Source of the DNA: an uncultured delta proteobacterium
Lineage (GTDB): Bacteria; Myxococcota; Myxococcia; Myxococcales; Myxococcaceae
Direction of reading: 5' to 3'
Assembly (NCBI GenBank): GCA_963771175.1
Contig: CAVYSY010000029.1
Location: 1 to 42,501 of the forward strand
Length of the DNA: 42,501 nucleotides
This document shows positions 30,519 to 42,501 of the stretch, one piece after another (within the stretch, counting starts at the first letter, position 1; each line of letters opens with the position of its first letter). A program made the position numbers and the translations under genes. The notes beneath the pieces were generated by a model. That model was not told the DNA's origin and made no database searches. It saw only the letters and a program-made list of their open reading frames with translations.

Positions 30519-33269
30519 CTACTCCCGGGCGAGCTTCTCCCGGGGAACGCGGACGGAGGTGACCTCGCCGGCCTTGATGTCCACCTGGAACTTCAGTGAC
30601 TTGCCCTCGGGACCCACGAGCCGCAGCGTCTGCTTGCCCACGGGCACGGCCACCCGGAAGAGCGGCGTCTCGCCCAGCAGGAGGTTGCCCAGGTACACCT
30701 TGGCGGTGACCTCCGTGGTGAGCGTGAGGGCGCCCTTCCCCTCCGACGGCTCGGACGCTCCCGAGCGCTCGCGCTCCAATGCCTCCCACGCCCGTTCCGC
30801 CTCGTTGGAGTTCGTCACCAGCTCGGGCGAGGTCTCCATGTCCACGGGAGGGCGCTCGCGCTTGCGGCGGGTGCTCGTCGTCACCTTGCCGCCCCGCTTC
30901 ACCGGCTGCGTGGGCTCGACGCCGGCCTCGGGCTCTCTGTCCTCCTGGCCGGCGGGCGTGTCCGTCTCATCCGGAGCCGCGTCCGCGGAGGCCGCCTCGT
31001 TCTTCACCTCGGGCGAGGCCGTGCCCTCGGCGACCGCGGCCGGGGTGGGCGAGGGCTCGCCGGTGGCGACAGCGTCCGCGGAGGCACCCGCGTCCGGACT
31101 GCTCGCGGCAGCGGCCCCCGGCTCCCGAGGGTCGGCAGTGGGGGTCTCGTCGCTGGCGGGTGGAGGCTGGGGCTGCGTGGCGTCGACCGCCTTCACGACG
31201 GGAGTCGAGGCCTCCGGAGGGGGTGGGAACAGCCGCGAGGACACGAGGCCCCCATCCAGCCTCAGGGCCACCGCGGTGGCGCCACCGCCCAGCAGGAGCA
31301 GGAGCAGCAGCACGGCCACCCAGGTGCCTCGTCCCGACCGGGAAGGCGCGGGTGCTCGGGTCTCGGAGCGGGTGGAGTCCTCCACGGCTCGTGGCTCCCC
31401 CCTCTGGGAGAGCGTGGCCGCGGCGATGACGGGGGAGGTGGGGAACTCCGAGGTGTCGTCGTCCTCGAACTCCGTTCCGCGGCGCCGGGCGGACGTGGGC
31501 GGCGCGACGGCGGTGAGGAACTCCGGCCGCGCTTGGATGGGGCGGGTGTAGTCCTCGGACTCGTCCACGTCCGGAGGCTCCACCCGGGAGGGCCGCGCTT
31601 GGATGGGGCGGGTGTAGTCCTCGGACTCGTCCACGTCCGGAGGCGCCACCTCGCGCGGCCGGGCCAGCGGCGAGCGGAGGGCGGGCACGGTGGGGCCATC
31701 CGGAAACTCGTGCTGTTTGGGCACCGGAGCGGGAATCCCGAGCCCGCCGACGGGCTGGGTGACGGCGTCCAGGTGCGGCAACGCGGTCTCGATCGTCGGC
31801 CGGCGACCCGGGCGCACGGGGTTGCTCCGAGGTCCGCCCCCGCTCGCGGCGATGGGCTGCTCCCCGGTGGTGCGCGGTACCCGCATGACGGAGGTCTGGA
31901 TCTCCGCCTGGGGTGGCGGCTGCTCGGGCACGTCGGTGCGGGGCAGGCTGCGCGGGCGCGCGGGGACGGTGCGCTCCCAGGGCGGCGGCAGCGCGGGCCG
32001 GTGGAGATCCTCGGTCTCGGGTGGAGGCGGGGGCGTGACAGGCGCCGGAGGTCGGGTGGCGACCGGGGGGGCGACGAGCTCCGTCCGATCGGAGTTGACC
32101 GAGGGCGTCGAGAATTGGGGCGCGGAGATGCTGGGCAGGCGCCCCGCGGCGGTGGAGGTCCTCGGGGGAGTGGGCGCGGTGACGCCCGGCGAGGCGGCCG
32201 GCACGGGCGGAGGCGTGGTGATGGCCTCCTTGTCCGAGAAGAGCTGCGCGAGCTTCACCTCTCCCGTGCCGTCGCCGGCGGCCCGGCCGCTGGCGAGGAG
32301 CTGGCGCGTCTGCTCCCGCCGCTCGGCGAAGAGGCGCCGCAGCAGCTCGCCACTCTTCTCCGGCAGCCAGATGAGCGGGCCCACGGCGCGCTCCAGCTCG
32401 CGGGCGAACTCCAGCGTGGTGGCGTAACGGTCCTCGCGCCGGCGCGCCAGCGCCTTGAGCACGATGGCGTCCAGCCCGGGGGGAATGGCCTTGTTGACGC
32501 GCGAGGGCTCGGGGATGGGGGCGCGCAGCACGGCCTGCGCCACCGCCATGGGCGCCTTGCCCGGGAAGAGCCGCATGCCGGTGAGGCACTCGTGCAGCAC
32601 CACGCCCAGGCTGAACAAGTCACTGCGCGCGTCCAGCGGCTCGCCGCGAATCTGCTCCGGCGACATGTACCCGCTGGTGCCCTTCACCATGCCCACCTGG
32701 GTGCGGCTGGCGCCCGCCAGGTTCTTGGCGATGCCGAAGTCCAGCAGCTTGGTGACGCCCTCGTACGTCACCATGATGTTCTTCTCGGCCACGTCCCGGT
32801 GGATGACGGGCGAGGGATCTCCAAGCGGATCCGTGTAGGTGTGCGCGTAGTGCAGTGCCAGCGCGGTGTCGCGCACGGCCGCCAGCCCGAAGCCCACGGG
32901 CATGGACTCCTGGGCGGAGCGGCACGCCCGGGCCACCTCGATCAACGTGGCCCCCGGCACGAACTCCATGGCGAGGAAGAGCTCTCCCTGGGCCACGTCC
33001 AGATCGAACACCTGGGCGATGTGCGGGTGGTTGAAGGCCGCCGTCACCTTGGCCTCGTCCAGGAACATCTGGACGAACTCCTCCTGGCCCTGGATGTCCG
33101 GGAGGATCTTCTTGAGCACCACGGGTTTGTGGAAGCCGGCCAGGCCCCTCTTGGAGGCGAGGAAAATCTCCGCCATGCCGCCCGTGGACAGGCGACAGAG
33201 CACCTCGTAGTTGCCCATCTGCCGACCGCGGACGTCATCCGGGCCAGAGGGTGTCGTCGACCCAGCCAT
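30519..33269 (-). CDS. Hanks-type protein kinase (RDVAEKN loop), long Pro-rich linker, TM and PEGA-like C-terminus (916 aa)
   Basis: LSTGGMAEI, VVLKKI, HRDVAEKN, DFG, GTSGYMSPEQ; TM WVAVLLLLLLLGGG; KVYLGNLLLGETPL. Confidence 0.93.
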   Translation of the reverse strand: MAGSTTPSGPDDVRGRQMGNYEVLCRLSTGGMAEIFLASKRGLAGFHKPVVLKKILPDIQGQEEFVQMFLDEAKVTAAFNHPHIAQVFDLDVAQGELFLAMEFVPGATLIEVARACRSAQESMPVGFGLAAVRDTALALHYAHTYTDPLGDPSPVIHRDVAEKNIMVTYEGVTKLLDFGIAKNLAGASRTQVGMVKGTSGYMSPEQIRGEPLDARSDLFSLGVVLHECLTGMRLFPGKAPMAVAQAVLRAPIPEPSRVNKAIPPGLDAIVLKALARRREDRYATTLEFARELERAVGPLIWLPEKSGELLRRLFAERREQTRQLLASGRAAGDGTGEVKLAQLFSDKEAITTPPPVPAASPGVTAPTPPRTSTAAGRLPSISAPQFSTPSVNSDRTELVAPPVATRPPAPVTPPPPPETEDLHRPALPPPWERTVPARPRSLPRTDVPEQPPPQAEIQTSVMRVPRTTGEQPIAASGGGPRSNPVRPGRRPTIETALPHLDAVTQPVGGLGIPAPVPKQHEFPDGPTVPALRSPLARPREVAPPDVDESEDYTRPIQARPSRVEPPDVDESEDYTRPIQARPEFLTAVAPPTSARRRGTEFEDDDTSEFPTSPVIAAATLSQRGEPRAVEDSTRSETRAPAPSRSGRGTWVAVLLLLLLLGGGATAVALRLDGGLVSSRLFPPPPEASTPVVKAVDATQPQPPPASDETPTADPREPGAAAASSPDAGASADAVATGEPSPTPAAVAEGTASPEVKNEAASADAAPDETDTPAGQEDREPEAGVEPTQPVKRGGKVTTSTRRKRERPPVDMETSPELVTNSNEAERAWEALERERSGASEPSEGKGALTLTTEVTAKVYLGNLLLGETPLFRVAVPVGKQTLRLVGPEGKSLKFQVDIKAGEVTSVRVPREKLARE
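31525..31644. repeat. In-frame tandem repeat (66-bp period, 54 bp identical) encoding PPDVDESEDYTRPIQARP twice
   Basis: ggccgcgcttggatggggcgggtgtagtcctcggactcgtccacgtccggaggc at 31525-31578 and 31591-31644. Confidence 0.95.
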
Positions 33270-33729
33270 TCGAGAAATACAAGCTTATAGGAACCCAGAC
33301 CCGAGGGCGAAAGCCGAGCCGTGATTTTCGCGTGGGGGTGCAACGGGAGCGGATTCCAGTCACACGCCCCGTGCCCGTTTTGCCCCCGGTAAACCCCCAC
33401 CAAGACAGCCGGTGTGGGTGCCTGGGCTCACTTTCTTGGGTTTTACAAGAAGAATCCAGAGGGCCTGAAGTTCCCGTTCCCTGCCCACGGGCCCCCGTTC
33501 CAGCAACCCGCATCTTCTGGACGGTAGGTCCGTTCACCAGGCGGCACCGCGCTGGGAGTCGATGGGTCCGCAACGCTTTAGAGAGCCCACTCCCCGGACA
33601 GCGCTGCAAGCCCCGAGGGGGGTGTCCACATTGGCGGAACCGAAATTCCACCGGGTGGCCGGTCGGAGCGGTGGAGAGGAAATTTCCACTGGTCCCATAA
33701 ACCGGTGCTCCACGACAGACGGAGTTCCC

Positions 33730-35794
33730 ATGGCGACGGAGAAGGCGGACCGTATGCGAGCCCGAGAGAGCGTCCTGGGATACCGGATGGGACCCGGGCA
33801 GTCGGCGGTGGCATCGGTGGAGGGCGAGTCGCAGCCGGCGGGGAGGCTGGTGCAACTGTCGCCGGAGCACCTGACGCTGCACCTGTTCATGCCCACGGCG
33901 CTGCGCCCGGGACAGACGGCCAACGTGGTGGTGGGCACGGGGGAGCAGACGACGTCGCTGCGGGCCGAGGTGACGAACGTGCTGCTGCAGGGGCCGGGGG
34001 AGCTGCCGGAGCTGAGCCTGCGCTTCGTGGCGCCGCCGCTGGACAAGGGCCGGTGCATCGTCTCGATGCTGGAGCGGCTGAAGGACGAGGGGCAGCTCGA
34101 GACGCCGCGCGGGAGGCCCATCTGGAAGGAGCGGATTACGCGGGCGGATCGGATCGGCCGCATCTTCGAGGCGCTGACGGCGAGGCGGTGCCGGGGCCGG
34201 GTGCGCGCGAGCACGGGGGATGTGGACCTGGTGGCGGCGCTCTATGACCGGTTCGACGGGAAGGTGGCGTGGGAGGTGCGCGGGGTGCCGCCCCCGGCGC
34301 CCTTCACGGTGGAGCTGTTCGGCTACAGCTCGGTGCTGCACTTCGAGGTGGAGCACGCGACGTACGAGGACGGGCTGTGGGTGGTGCCGCTACCGCGCGA
34401 GGTGGTGCGCTACCGCCACCGCTTCCTGAGGAGGGCTTCGGCGTGGGGTGGGTGCACGGTGCGCTTCTCCCATCCGCTGTGGCCGCAGGTGCGGGTGTGG
34501 CGGGAGCTGGCGGACATCTCCTACGAGGGACTGTCCTTCTGCACGGAGCCGGGGGAGGACCTGCTGTACCCGGGGCTGCGGCTGCCGGAGGTGGAGGTGG
34601 ATCTGCCGGGGAAGGAGCCGGTGAGGCTGAGGGCCGAGGTGCGCAACATCACCGGGCTGGCGGGGGGCCGGCGCTGCGGCATGTCGGTGGTGCCGCTGAG
34701 CGAGGAGGAGGGAGCGCGCTGGCGGCTGACGGTGGAGGAGCAGAGCCACCCGAACACGCGGGTGACGGGGGACTGGAACCAGGGAACGTGGGAGCTCTTC
34801 GAGCGCTCGGGGTACTTCCGGCTGTCGGGGAAGACGCCGGCGGACTTCGCGCGGATGCAGGCCGAGTACCGTGACGCGCACGAGCTGCTGGAGAGGCACG
34901 CGCGGCTGGGCTACCGGGTGGTGCGGCCGATGCCGTCGGGCCAGGCGGTGGAGGCGAGCCTGTCGTGGCTCAAGCCGTACACGGGGAGCTGGCTGGCGCA
35001 CCAGCTCGCGCGCCAGGCGCCGCCCAACGAGAAGCTGCGCAGCACGGCGCGAGAGGCGCTGCGGGACGTCTACCTGCGGGGCTTCGAGCCGGCGCAGATG
35101 GACTCGGAGGTGAAGTGGTTCCTGGCGTACTGCGAGGCGAACGTGCGCTGGGTGCGCTTCACGGCGTTCGACTTCGCCGAGTGGTACCAGCACACGGGGC
35201 AGGCGTGCATGGTGCCCTTCCGCTTCATGGAGGCGGATGCGCGGCGGGAGTGGAAGGTGCCGGAGGGCTTCACGCTGGGGGAGCCGACGGAGGAGGAGAA
35301 GGCGGCGCTCTTCGCGCGGCTGGAGGAGACGCGGCCGCGGGCGTACCGGGAGGCGTTGGATCTGGTGCCGGAGCGGTTCGACCTGGCGGAGCTGAAGCGC
35401 AAGTGGAGCGAGGCGGGGCTGAAGCGGGAGCGGGAGGTGAGGGTGGCGCGCAAGGACGGGCGAGCGCTAGCGGTGGGGGTGCTGGAGACGGCGCACGTGG
35501 GGTTGAACCTGTTCAACGTGCTGGACGGGGTGCGGCATCGTGCCGCTGGTGGACGCGGCGCTGCCGGAGGCGCAGGAGGCGATGCTGGCGCTGCTGGCGG
35601 GAGCGGCGGAGTGGTACCGGGCCCGGGGACTGAACGTGTTCGTGCACTACGTGGAGACGGAGCACGTGGAGTACACGGAGCGCGCGAAGCTGGTGGACCT
35701 GGGAGAGGGCCGCATCTGGATATTGTCGGCGCAGCTCCTGCCGGACTTCATCGAGCACCTGTGCGAGGCGACAACGCCCCGCGGAGAGCCCTGA
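33730..35794 (+). CDS. PilZ-domain protein (~687 aa) with uncharacterised, possibly GNAT-like C-terminal half; +1 frameshift near 35536 as sequenced
   Basis: RFLRR (RxxxR) and DISYEG (DxSxxG) followed by LRAEVRN...RCGM; a degenerate PilZ-like barrel at the N-terminus; ORF 35540..35794 supplies the C-terminus; GGAG RBS before ATG 33730. Confidence 0.8.
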
Positions 35795-39157: not shown

Positions 39158-39667
39158 GTGTCCTTGTCCACCCTCTGCCAGCGCTGCGGCCTGTGCTGTG
39201 ACGGCAGCCTCTTCAGCCATGTGCCGCTCCAGCTCGAGGAGGTCGCTCCCGCTCGGCGCAACGAGCTGGACGTGGTGGAGCTCGTGGGCGGCTCGCCCGC
39301 GCTCCGCCTGGGCTGCTCGGCCTTGAAGGACCGCCGGTGCACGCTCTACGCCGAGCGTCCCCTGGGCTGCCACGCCTACAGTTGCCGTCTGTTCAATGAG
39401 GTGGCGGGAGGCAGGCTCTCCCTCGATGAGGGGCTCGCGGTGGTGGACCGGGCGCATGCCCTGCTGTCTGCCTTGGAGGCGAACCTCCCGGCCGACACGG
39501 ATGCACATCCGTCCCCAGTGCTGGAGCGCGCGCGCTTCGCGGACCTGTCCGAGAGCGGCGGGCCCTCCCCGGAGACCCGCGCGCTGAGGGAGCGCACCGA
39601 GGCCTTCCTGGACGAGCACTTCCACGGCGGGGCGAGGCGCTTCCCCGGGGTCTCCGGAGAACCTTGA
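39158..39667 (+). CDS. YkgJ family (CxxCxxCC) cysteine-cluster protein
   Basis: CQRCGLCCDG...CSAL...CTLYAERPLGCHAYSC. Confidence 0.88.
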   Translation: MSLSTLCQRCGLCCDGSLFSHVPLQLEEVAPARRNELDVVELVGGSPALRLGCSALKDRRCTLYAERPLGCHAYSCRLFNEVAGGRLSLDEGLAVVDRAHALLSALEANLPADTDAHPSPVLERARFADLSESGGPSPETRALRERTEAFLDEHFHGGARRFPGVSGEP

Positions 39668-39679
39668 CCGGGCTTGTCG

Positions 39680-40528
39680 TCAGGGTTCATCTGAACCCAG
39701 GCTGAACTCATCCAGCGCGAGCCGGGTCATGCCGAGATAGCTGGCAACGTCGATGGAACCCAAGTCACGGAAGTTCGTAGCGTCGATGCGGACCTTCCCA
39801 TTCCCGGTCAGCACCTGTTCCATCCAGCCAAGCACTTCCAACTCATCCGCGGGTTTCAGTGGCGCATCCTTCGGGAGGATGAAGAGCAGCGACACCCTGA
39901 AGGGCGCCATGGCATCCGGCGTGTGGAAGCGGATTTCGCTGACCTGGTCGAGAAGAGGCGACACCGGGTCGTTATCGGGGAGTTGCCGTATCGCCACCAC
40001 CAGGGGCTTCTGGATGGCATCGACGATCGGATCGGGAACGGCGGGCCGGTCATAGCGGCGAGCCAGCCAGCTCTTGAAACGGCCGAGCGTGGAGGCGTCC
40101 AGACGAGGCAGCCCCGCGCTGGGTACCAGTTCCAGCAGCGAATCTTTCTCGACATGGACCCGGACCAGCGCGTCCGCGATGAGGCCCTCCTGTTTCCCAT
40201 CCGGAAGCTGATGGCTCCGAAGGAGGAACTTCCGGACGGAGTTCAGCCGGGCCTCGCGAATGGCACCCTTGTCCTTCGTCCACGAGGCACGCAGCAACTC
40301 GACCCGAGACTCCGCTTTCGCGGCGATGTCGCAGTCCTGAGAGGCCACCACCCACCATTCGTCCGGGTGCCCGTCCTGGGAAGCGACGCTCCAGGCCTTC
40401 TGGGCTTCAGCTCCACCCGCGTCGCGGCGGAGCCACGCGTACCGGGTGCCTTGCGCCATCAGGAATGTGCCCTGTCGCCAGCCCTGATCGAGCAGGCGCC
40501 GTCCCAGCGGAGGTGCCTCCGTGGTCAT
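39680..40528 (-). CDS. Hypothetical protein (WRQG / SQDCD / RRYxRPAxPD family), candidate toxin/effector
   Basis: Intact 282-aa ORF with ATGA overlap to the upstream gene; motifs GWRQGT, VVASQDCDI, WLARRYDRPAVPD. Confidence 0.75.
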   Translation of the reverse strand: MTTEAPPLGRRLLDQGWRQGTFLMAQGTRYAWLRRDAGGAEAQKAWSVASQDGHPDEWWVVASQDCDIAAKAESRVELLRASWTKDKGAIREARLNSVRKFLLRSHQLPDGKQEGLIADALVRVHVEKDSLLELVPSAGLPRLDASTLGRFKSWLARRYDRPAVPDPIVDAIQKPLVVAIRQLPDNDPVSPLLDQVSEIRFHTPDAMAPFRVSLLFILPKDAPLKPADELEVLGWMEQVLTGNGKVRIDATNFRDLGSIDVASYLGMTRLALDEFSLGSDEP

Positions 40529-41454
40529 GGCTCACCCGATGGTCTCTCGCCCTCCTGCCCACCGGCCTCTTCCAGATCTTCACGTGCTGGAGGAGGGCTG
40601 AGCCGTTCCGCCTCCAGGCGAAGCGCATCGGGACTCAGCTGCCGCACCGTCCCCGAGAGCGGTTGCGGTGTAGGGAGGAAGGAGGACGGCGTCCGCGCGC
40701 GAACGAGCAGCCCCTGGAGCGCGCGCCAGCGGCGCTGCTTCATCAGATGAAGAGGCGTCTCCGCGCCCGGTGCCACGGGGGTCAGCAGCCACTGCTTCAG
40801 GGTCTGGGTGTCCTTGAGCTGCCTGGCCGCGGTCTCGACGAACTTCAAGGCCTCCAACAGGTGTGACTCCCGCTCGCCGCGAGGCGAGGTGCCGTTGAGC
40901 CAGCCGTAGAAGGCGCCGCGTGTAATGTCGAACACGTCCGCGAGCTGCTGGACGTTCAAGTCGGTCAGCGCACGCAGACGTTCCGCGGGATGATCTGGCC
41001 GAGTCGCGGCCTCTCGAGCAGTTGGGGGTTCACCTGTGCCGGTGGCATTCTGGAGTGTCTGGCCCCACCTGGCGATCAGGGCAGTTGCTACCCCGAAGAT
41101 TGCCAGCTTCGCGAACAGAAAGTCCGACGGACTCTCCGATGAACTGCAAGGGGCAGCAGGCGGGTACAGGGCTCTTAGGGCTTGCTGCGAGCCATACGCC
41201 CCGTGATGGGCCAGCCTCGCCCAGGTACCGTAGTAGCAAAGCGTGACGGCCGACCCGACCTCGCACTCGGGGTGGTTGCCCGTAATGGAGTCTGGCGAGA
41301 AGGCCAGGAGGGTCGGGACCTGCGTGTTACCCGTCCCCGTCAGCCCTTCAAGCAGTGGATGGAGGGGGAAGGCAGGAAGGGGACGGCGCCTCGACGCGGG
41401 TCGGGGCGACACCTCGGTTGGCTCGGCCCATGGCCCTTCGCGCAGCTCAGACAT
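40525..41454 (-). CDS. HTH protein with Xre-like helix-turn-helix and MbcA/ParS-like C-terminal motif, long N-terminal extension
   Basis: LRALTDLNVQQLADVFDITRGAFYGWLNG (HTH) then QWLLTPVAPGAETPLHLM (W..P.....TP..L); start overlaps the TIGR04255 stop. Confidence 0.7.
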   Translation of the reverse strand: MSELREGPWAEPTEVSPRPASRRRPLPAFPLHPLLEGLTGTGNTQVPTLLAFSPDSITGNHPECEVGSAVTLCYYGTWARLAHHGAYGSQQALRALYPPAAPCSSSESPSDFLFAKLAIFGVATALIARWGQTLQNATGTGEPPTAREAATRPDHPAERLRALTDLNVQQLADVFDITRGAFYGWLNGTSPRGERESHLLEALKFVETAARQLKDTQTLKQWLLTPVAPGAETPLHLMKQRRWRALQGLLVRARTPSSFLPTPQPLSGTVRQLSPDALRLEAERLSPPPAREDLEEAGGQEGERPSGEP

Positions 41455-42232
41455 CGTGAGGCTCCAACGCGTCCTCGAGGCGCTTGCTCAATGTCCAACG
41501 GAAGAAATGATAGCAGAACCTGTTGTAGGCCTTGAGCTGAGCCGCACTGCCCGCGAGGTCCAGGGGACTCGGGCGAGCATCCGAATAGTCGAGGTCGAGG
41601 AGGTAGAACGGCTCCTGCGCCGTCGAGCCGACGGTGGTGGGTAGCAGCGGATTGCCTCCCAGCAATCCGTGGCGGACGACGAACCTGCCATCCGGTCGAT
41701 TGACCTGGACTTCCTGGACCATGTGGCTCACGGGCTCGTCGAACAGGGATGCAGCGAAGCCGAGAAACTCGGGTTTGAACTGCTCACGCCAGTGCGCCAT
41801 CGAGCCTGTTTGGGGCGAGCGGAACTCGTTGATGTACCGCAATCCCAAGCGGTGCCGCTCGCGCAGGCCCAGATGCTCCTGGGCAGCGGTCATGACGCGT
41901 TCGAAGCGTGCGAGCAGGTCATCGATACTGGAGTACCTGCGGGTCTCCAGCGTCAGCGAGTCTTCTCCCAGAACAATCGACCAGTCGCCAGTACGCTCGG
42001 AGAACCGGTAGAGCGTCTCGTTCGTCTTGGGGGTCACCGCCGTGGCTGTCAGCCGGAAACTGGGCTGCTCCTCACGGTCCACGTCCGGGTAGACGTCAGC
42101 AAGGGACTCCTGGAAGTTGGCAATGGACTGCGCGTCCCTGAACCGGAGGAGGAGGGAAGAGCGGACCTGGGCAATCACCAGCTTGAGTGGTGACTTGGCG
42201 AACCGGACCCGCGGGTACTCAGGTAGCGGCAT
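41447..42232 (-). CDS. TIGR04255 family protein
   Basis: F.KSPLKLVIAQVR, LADVYP, YRFS...W.IVL..DSLTLET..Y, RLGLRYIN, YLLDLD, FFRW.L motifs. Confidence 0.85.
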   Translation of the reverse strand: MPLPEYPRVRFAKSPLKLVIAQVRSSLLLRFRDAQSIANFQESLADVYPDVDREEQPSFRLTATAVTPKTNETLYRFSERTGDWSIVLGEDSLTLETRRYSSIDDLLARFERVMTAAQEHLGLRERHRLGLRYINEFRSPQTGSMAHWREQFKPEFLGFAASLFDEPVSHMVQEVQVNRPDGRFVVRHGLLGGNPLLPTTVGSTAQEPFYLLDLDYSDARPSPLDLAGSAAQLKAYNRFCYHFFRWTLSKRLEDALEPHDV

Positions 42233-42250
42233 GAAGGGGCCCCTTAACGA

Positions 42251-42305
42251 AGCTGTACACCGAGCTGTACATATGCACGACCTTCCGTACGCTTAAGTGT
42301 ACAGC
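42251..42305. promoter_or_regulatory. Candidate operator/promoter of the TIGR04255 operon: AGCTGTACA x2 plus inverted GTGTACAGC
   Basis: AGCTGTACA at 42251-42259 and 42263-42271; GTGTACAGC at 42297-42305 overlaps a minus-strand TACACT -10-like hexamer (42296-42301). Confidence 0.55.
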
Positions 42306-42501
42306 AGTGTTCCCACCGGCTGGAGGGGAAGGGGTCGAGCAAGGGTATTCCTGATCGGTCCATCCTCCCTTCCAGGGGACGAAAACGTTGGGATACCGGG
42401 TACTTGGAAGGACCGAAGAGGCCTTCCAGCCTGGGAGGCTTCCGGTCAGGGGACCAGGTGAGCCAGCAGGCGACGAGCAACTCGGGGGACATCCGAGTCC
42501 C

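Follow-up and report, generated by a model that had tools for sequence, protein, structure and literature searches.

Several described systems share features with the locus reported here. In the Xre-RES toxin-antitoxin (TA) pairs (ParST and MbcTA; families NF049845 and PF20432/PF09722) an Xre-type helix-turn-helix (HTH) is followed by a ParS/MbcA-like helical domain, and the antitoxin gene lies directly upstream of the toxin gene, which it overlaps. A second group is formed by MazEF, Kis-Kid and CcdAB (PF02452), and tripartite TA systems are known as well, namely toxin-antitoxin-chaperone (TAC) systems and HipBST. Rousset et al. 2022 (PMC9122126) describe the gpA-gpQ interval of P2-like prophages as a hotspot in which old and tin are found together with many defence systems. 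The locus analysed here consists of three genes, g1, g2 and g3 (the trio), and lies in contig CAVYSY010000029.1 of an uncultured member of the Myxococcaceae; the window is this entire contig of 42,501 bp, and the host genome has 9.8 Mb. We rate the trio as an uncatalogued candidate TA or defence module made from a combination of parts that was unrecorded in PADLOC-DB 2.0.0 and in the literature searched; newer catalogues might list it. The features of the locus are as follows:

42252-42305, minus strand: operator-like cluster directly upstream of the g1 start codon, with three TGTACA cores and repeats
41447-42232, minus strand: g1, 261 aa, TIGR04255 family, predicted TBP-like duplicated alpha/beta fold
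40525-41454, minus strand: g2, 309 aa, HTH protein in which a variable N-terminus (residues 1 to about 145) precedes the HTH and the ParS/MbcA-like helices (about 150-250), with a tail at the C-terminus
40705-41007, minus strand: g2 residues about 150-250, Xre-type HTH with a ParS/MbcA-like segment C-terminal to it (family profile against PDB; weak match to NF049845)
39680-40528, minus strand: g3, 282 aa, without family-library match
40043-40486, minus strand: g3 residues 15-162, modelled MazF/Kid/CcdB-fold domain with the invariant motifs GWRQG, SQDCD, E77, R99 and WLxxRYxRPA
39704-40042, minus strand: g3 residues 163-275, small C-terminal domain of alpha/beta (ferredoxin-like) type

The reading frames of all three genes are open, and the overlaps are 8 nt between g1 and g2 (41447-41454) and 4 nt between g2 and g3 (40525-40528), just as the initial annotation of the window had read them. 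The same annotation had taken the three genes for a module with TIGR04255, and this was found to hold in every locus with a g3 relative. A pattern scan, with one genome per species, yielded 60 such genomic loci, and profile hidden Markov models detected both g1 and g2 in 60/60, a strict co-occurrence far beyond chance. For the g1 and g2 profiles, 38 and 40 of these loci, respectively, had supplied the sequences, so that the profiles are not fully independent of them; the loci left out matched too. When the window proteins were used as tblastn queries, g1 was detected upstream of g3 in 47 loci and g2 in 13, and NCBIfam added TIGR04255 in seven. The full trio was also present in all 20 predicted viral loci with a g3 relative in IMG/VR. 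Judged by record titles, with orders placed into phyla by us, the 60 loci span at least eight phyla: Myxococcota, Pseudomonadota, Chloroflexota, Actinomycetota, Eremiobacterota, Gemmatimonadota, Acidobacteriota and Cyanobacteria. The three proteins diverged together: their pairwise distances over 58 loci correlated with r values of 0.92-0.95, a level reached in none of 999 permutations; the correlation owes something to the common descent of the hosts.

The order g1-g2-g3 was colinear in 57 of the 60 loci, with a median g2-g3 spacing of -7 nt. In three actinobacterial metagenome-assembled genomes (MAGs; L015, L020 and L052) g1-g2 are on the opposite strand, divergent from g3 across a gap of about 570 bp. 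In two further MAGs, from Chloroflexales (L011, 4032-5462) and Eremiobacterota (L012, 4458-5987), g1 and g2 are joined in one uninterrupted open reading frame (ORF), either by true fusion or through an error of assembly. Taken together, the two fusions and the three divergent loci suggest that g1 works with g2 and not with g3. The g3 gene was split across two frames in 2/60 loci (L011, 5498-6208; L052, 2335-3080), either because the putative toxin has been inactivated or because of an error in sequencing.

For g2, the initial annotation had described an HTH with an MbcA/ParS/Xre-like segment behind it, and this was borne out at the level of the family profile. A profile made of 41 middle-gene products matched in the PDB the Xre/MbcA/ParS-like antitoxin 8qnl_A (E 1.6e-5, chain residues 14-126 of 129) and MbcA 6fkg_C (E 4.1e-4, chain residues 17-109 of 115), as well as HTH domains of the HipB and HigA types. 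As judged by these profile matches, the g2 family resembles solved Xre/MbcA/ParS antitoxins in the HTH as well as in the C-terminal domain that binds the toxin. An alignment of g2 with the middle genes of 40 related loci displayed a common plan of variable N-terminus, HTH, helical segment and short C-terminal tail. Taken alone, g2 matched the Xre_ParS_antitoxin model NF049845 at residues 158-240 with 14.6 bits (E 0.026), far under the family cut-off of 90, and no Pfam match was obtained at E<=1. Among 43 g2 homologues PF20432 matched six, PF09722 one and PF23125 one, all under gathering scores, and HTH-type Pfam matches at E<=0.01 were present in 37 of the 43 middle-gene products, mostly under the gathering score. 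The trio differs from the Xre-RES pairs in several respects: no RES match was found in either neighbour of g2 (Pfam, NCBIfam), and the downstream partner is modelled with a MazF/CcdB fold instead; g2 is extended by a long variable region at its N-terminus and by a tail at its C-terminus; and there is a third obligatory gene. Residues 110-128 of g2 (window 41071-41127) form a hydrophobic 19-mer ahead of the HTH (Kyte-Doolittle mean 1.72), which could be a membrane or interface segment; hydrophobic segments of at least 1.6 occur in 8/41 g2 homologues, mostly outside the actinobacterial clade.

The product of g3 had no match in Pfam, NCBIfam, PADLOC or PHROGs. Its structure model is confident (predicted local distance difference test score, pLDDT, 90.6), and according to this model the N-terminal domain has the MazF/Kid/CcdB (SH3-like barrel) fold, which assigns it to that superfamily by fold; residues 163-275 gave weak, mixed matches. 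Membership of g3 in the RES toxins or another named family was rejected on the missing library match. A sequence relation to PemK was likewise rejected: PemK or CcdB matched none of 44 g3 family members at E<=1, and hhalign gave a probability of 0.4 against 15 PemK sequences from related genomes. The initial annotation, which had excluded a RES toxin and considered a MazF/PemK-like barrel, was therefore right on the first point and, by the model, on the fold; by sequence, g3 lies outside the PemK family. A search of PDB sequences with the g3 profile returned one chance-level row (E 0.084), and the ESM Atlas returned unnamed clusters only.

The g3 family is large. A profile search found 3165 cluster representatives (50% identity) at E<=1e-3 and 1840 at E<=1e-10, and 64 proteins matched in a word-indexed search. 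The best 150 of the 3165 representatives are 172-330 aa long, and the source names of the clusters, like that of the E. coli g3, read only 'hypothetical protein'. In 44 aligned homologues G16, Q19, G20, C66, D67, E77, W154, L155, R158 and R161 are invariant, and W17, R18, Q64, R99, Y159, P162 and A163 are kept in at least 90%, so the WRQG, SQDCD and RRYxRPA motifs first noticed in the window are real and conserved. Compared with MazEF, Kis-Kid and CcdAB, g3 has no sequence-level relation, has a conserved set (Cys66, Asp67, Glu77 and several Arg) different from the MazF and CcdB sites, and carries an extra C-terminal alpha/beta domain (282 aa against about 110). The putative antitoxin differs as well, g2 being Xre/ParS-like and not MazE/AbrB- or CcdA-like.

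A conserved cis element lies upstream of g1. The TGTACA cores at 42254, 42266 and 42298 represent three of the seven sites in the window and fall within 50 bp, with 1.1 expected per window. Two of them belong to a tandem pair of TGTACAGC 12 nt apart, and a 9-nt inverted pair, GCTGTACAC/GTGTACAGC, lies in 42252-42305. With a strict regular expression, tandem pairs 11-12 nt apart were detected upstream of g1 in 48/77 loci, as against 19/2310 random segments of the same loci, and most of the remaining 29 upstream regions contain degenerate versions when inspected by eye. The repeat sequence depends on the clade: copies of proteobacterial, chloroflexal or prophage origin have TGTCAA/TGTAAA, and actinobacterial copies have TGGAAC(GT). 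The E. coli prophage copy carries the upstream tandem pair TGTCAACC-N4-TGTAAACT. We read the tandem repeats as a candidate operator of the g2 HTH, and they offer a ready assay for this regulator. Adjacent overlapping genes, a predicted DNA-binding antitoxin with an HTH and a candidate operator upstream together give the locus the layout of a type II TA system. A scan of 39400-42501 for sigma-70 promoters and terminators returned no sites; the contig ends 269 bp upstream of g1.

The first gene belongs to TIGR04255, as had been proposed: it matched the NCBIfam model over positions 1-251 of 252 with 145.1 bits (E 3.2e-42), the cut-off being 30. No match to g1 was obtained in Pfam, PADLOC, PHROGs or PDB sequences, the ESM Atlas returned TIGR04255 clusters only, and no longer fused forms were found in the protein database (weak evidence according to the search tool itself). 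A model built from 39 sequences (pLDDT 91.1) consists of two similar alpha/beta repeats, and TBP-, AdoMetDC- and kinase-like chains were among the fold matches listed. The match scores were under the level that would indicate more than a common arrangement, so only the fold class, TBP-like by the model, is taken from them. Conserved polar residues lie on equivalent strands of the repeats (Q22 in repeat 1; R128, R132 and Y133 in repeat 2), and together with D215 they may form a binding face.

As TAC and HipBST are generally understood, the trio shares with them three co-transcribed parts, one of which would modulate the antitoxin, and a proposed link to phage defence. It differs from them in its order, accessory-antitoxin-toxin, and in having no homologous component. 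An analogy to TAC had been drawn in the initial annotation; it holds for the number of parts; the gene order differs, and g1 models as TBP-like, with no SecB-like chain among the matches listed (a listing that does not exclude SecB).

The trio is mobile. TIGR04255 was present in only one of 12 other genomes of the genus. The trio of this genome separates two blocks that adjoin each other in the window (16.4-21.1 kb and 22.4-27.7 kb), which means that it occupies different chromosomal sites in two genomes of the same genus. A 1263-aa ORF without Pfam match lies there directly upstream of g1 on the opposite strand (L002 597-4388, minus strand, equal to about 6.3-10.1 kb of L124) and shares a 6.3-kb segment with the trio. 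The GC content of g1, g2 and g3 is 0.625, 0.668 and 0.645, and the GC content at third codon positions (GC3) is 0.798, 0.745 and 0.777, as compared with 0.865-0.886 in the neighbouring pirin, LysR, YceI and CxxCxxCC genes. The lower GC and atypical codons noted initially are not peculiar to the trio: the adjoining response-regulator gene is also low in GC3 (0.771). Elsewhere in the contig 33000-33750, 36000-36750 and 38500-39250 likewise fall to 0.63-0.66 GC.

Flanking regions were scanned in 26 loci (95 ORFs). A defence or mobile-element neighbour was found within about 5 kb in 12 of them, the other 14 having housekeeping neighbours, as has the trio of the window itself. In L040 the trio is inserted in a type I restriction-modification operon, with HsdR on one side and HsdS/HsdM on the other; in the related Rubrivivax loci L045 and L055 it has equal locus coordinates, the flanks having been scanned in L040 only. 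The other neighbours include a bacterial HORMA + AAA pair with a Schlafen-like gene (L012), HsdR (L016), Abi_2 (L060), Fic (L036), an MmeI-type enzyme with UvrD/HIRAN (L061), integrases (L003 and L017), IS21 (L024), an M78 peptidase (L018), DUF4365 and FtsK (L028) and a ResIII helicase (L053). These contexts point to defence or mobile elements. In tblastn searches of plasmids the g3 proteins of the window and of L017 had no match and that of L060 had two weak ones; among phage records there was no match to the window g3, and the g3 of L127 matched two Acinetobacter phage records.

In the P2-like loci scanned the trio is flanked by the replication gene gpA and/or by portal and terminase genes, and in one of them it lies beside an AbiD/PD-T4-5-like gene. 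One of 5426 complete E. coli genomes, NZ_CP106929.1, carries the trio at 4721974-4724289 in a P2-like prophage, 85% identical to another prophage copy, in the order replication endonuclease, hypothetical, DinI-like, TIGR04255 protein, HTH protein, hypothetical protein, portal, terminase. The trio thus shares the prophage locus of the gpA-gpQ cargo described in PMC9122126 (old, tin, 'hp + hp + hp'). Identity with the 'hp + hp + hp' system was rejected on protein sizes (337/362/230 aa, against 268/213/279 aa for the E. coli trio). The three E. coli accessions appear in Table S5A of that paper as hypothetical proteins with 6, 18 and 13 occurrences, and the trio is absent from the 21 named rows of tested systems in its Tables S2A/S2B. 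According to a 2026 study (PMC13586616), 19% of P2 elements have no identifiable hotspot defence genes, and six of eight randomly chosen P4 loci of unknown function protected against phage; the trio accessions were absent from the one supplement of that study that was searched.

The window trio had no match in PADLOC-DB 2.0.0 at E<=1. Nine further complete trios and a partial set, which were drawn from various clades and included copies from P2 prophages, gave no match to g1 or g3, and their g2 gave weak HTH matches to RmrA and mad1. The name TIGR04255 was found in none of 8.4 million literature texts, a search on Xre/ParS/MazF tripartite or MazF-like three-gene defence gave nothing relevant, and the part of the NetFlax paper available to us does not mention DUF2384, MbcA or a tripartite system.

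An antitoxin-like gene overlapping a MazF/CcdB-fold gene, the upstream candidate operator, the patchy mobile distribution and the hotspot and defence-island contexts are in keeping with a type II TA-like module that has a third part. More specifically, the trio may be a tripartite system of abortive infection or exclusion in which g3 is the effector, g2 serves as antitoxin and repressor, and g1 assists g2 as sensor or modulator; in our estimation this interpretation has an even chance of being correct. The three genes would then constitute one horizontally mobile operon, serving most likely abortive infection or phage exclusion. Through its HTH, g2 would bind to the tandem repeats that precede g1 and so repress the operon, and the ParS/MbcA-like C-terminal part of g2, together with its tail, would keep g3 inactive. 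From g1, which would act with g2, we expect sensing of the infection or control of g2. The effector g3, with its conserved polar set R18, Q19, Q64, C66, D67, E77, R99, R158 and R161, would arrest growth. Cleavage of RNA would be its probable mode of action and poisoning of a topoisomerase the less probable one; we infer that RNase activity is more likely than gyrase poisoning. Toxicity of g3, neutralisation by g2, DNA binding, the trigger and phage protection are all parts of this proposal. The E. coli P2-like prophage copy at the old/tin hotspot makes the hypothesis directly testable with standard coliphage panels. If it is correct, TIGR04255 and the g3 family, with its 3165 clusters, would gain a role, Xre/ParS-type antitoxins would be seen to pair with non-RES toxins as well, and the MazF/CcdB fold would gain a new architecture. 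A bolder version, which we consider tentative and on the whole doubtful, is that of a widespread anti-phage system in which the TBP-fold g1 senses a phage nucleic acid or protein and, via the Xre/ParS-type antitoxin-repressor, frees a MazF/CcdB-fold effector with a new Cys-Asp-Glu/Arg active site, TIGR04255 being a reusable sensor that pairs with other effectors too.

The trio might instead be a plain addiction or stabilisation TA system, or a maintenance or regulatory cassette of prophages, without a role in phage defence. The P2 hotspot is reported in PMC9122126 to hold non-defence cargo too, such as partition systems and cytolethal distending toxin, many chromosomal copies of the trio lie amid housekeeping genes, and no PADLOC model matched. 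We nevertheless consider this unlikely, as the trio recurs near restriction-modification, Abi, HORMA and integrase genes and also occupies the old/tin locus, the loci of unknown function tested in PMC13586616 were protective at a high rate, and a third conserved component would be superfluous for simple addiction. It is rather improbable that g1 and g2 form the functional core, with the TIGR04255 protein as effector, toxin or enzyme under Xre/ParS-like control and g3 as accessory, adaptor or second effector; the main support for such an arrangement comes from the g1-g2 fusions in L011 and L012 and from the loci in which g1-g2 are divergent from g3. That the trio is no conflict system, g2 regulating two co-regulated housekeeping or stress proteins on generic MazF-like and TBP-like scaffolds, would fit a function that is wholly inferred, the weak matches of g1 and the lack of sequence similarity of g3 to any toxin family, but it is very improbable given the patchy distribution across phyla, the different sites in two same-genus genomes, the low GC3 and the prophage hotspots, all typical of mobile conflict systems rather than housekeeping operons.

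TIGR04255 also occurs outside the trio. It was present in 55/401 sampled genomes of the host phylum, and 29 loci from other genomes comprised 12 with the full trio, one with g1-g2 at a contig end and 16 without g2 or g3. One of the trio loci (L077) is from an unpublished genome, and leaving it out gives 11/28; the loci carry 1.5-kb flanks, and about two end too early to be judged. The TIGR04255-only copies precede other small genes without Pfam match, and some are near an HNH nuclease, HsdM, an IS1595 transposase or DUF7689. In L083 the gene is accompanied by a 152-aa ORF and an HNH nuclease, opposite an HTH-HsdM gene; in L091 by a 268-aa ORF and DUF7689; in L081 by a 222-aa ORF with a 4-nt overlap; and in L070 it lies beside the IS1595 transposase. 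Such varied partners suggest that TIGR04255 is a reusable module combined with different sets of partners. A second TIGR04255 gene in the genome of the window stands alone, without g2 or g3 (contig C44:197886-198596, equal to L064 4878-5612; E 1.1e-20). Two ORFs without Pfam match follow it, one of 100 aa that overlaps it by 4 nt and one of 759 aa, and a gene for an RNase P protein is found 1.7 kb upstream of it.

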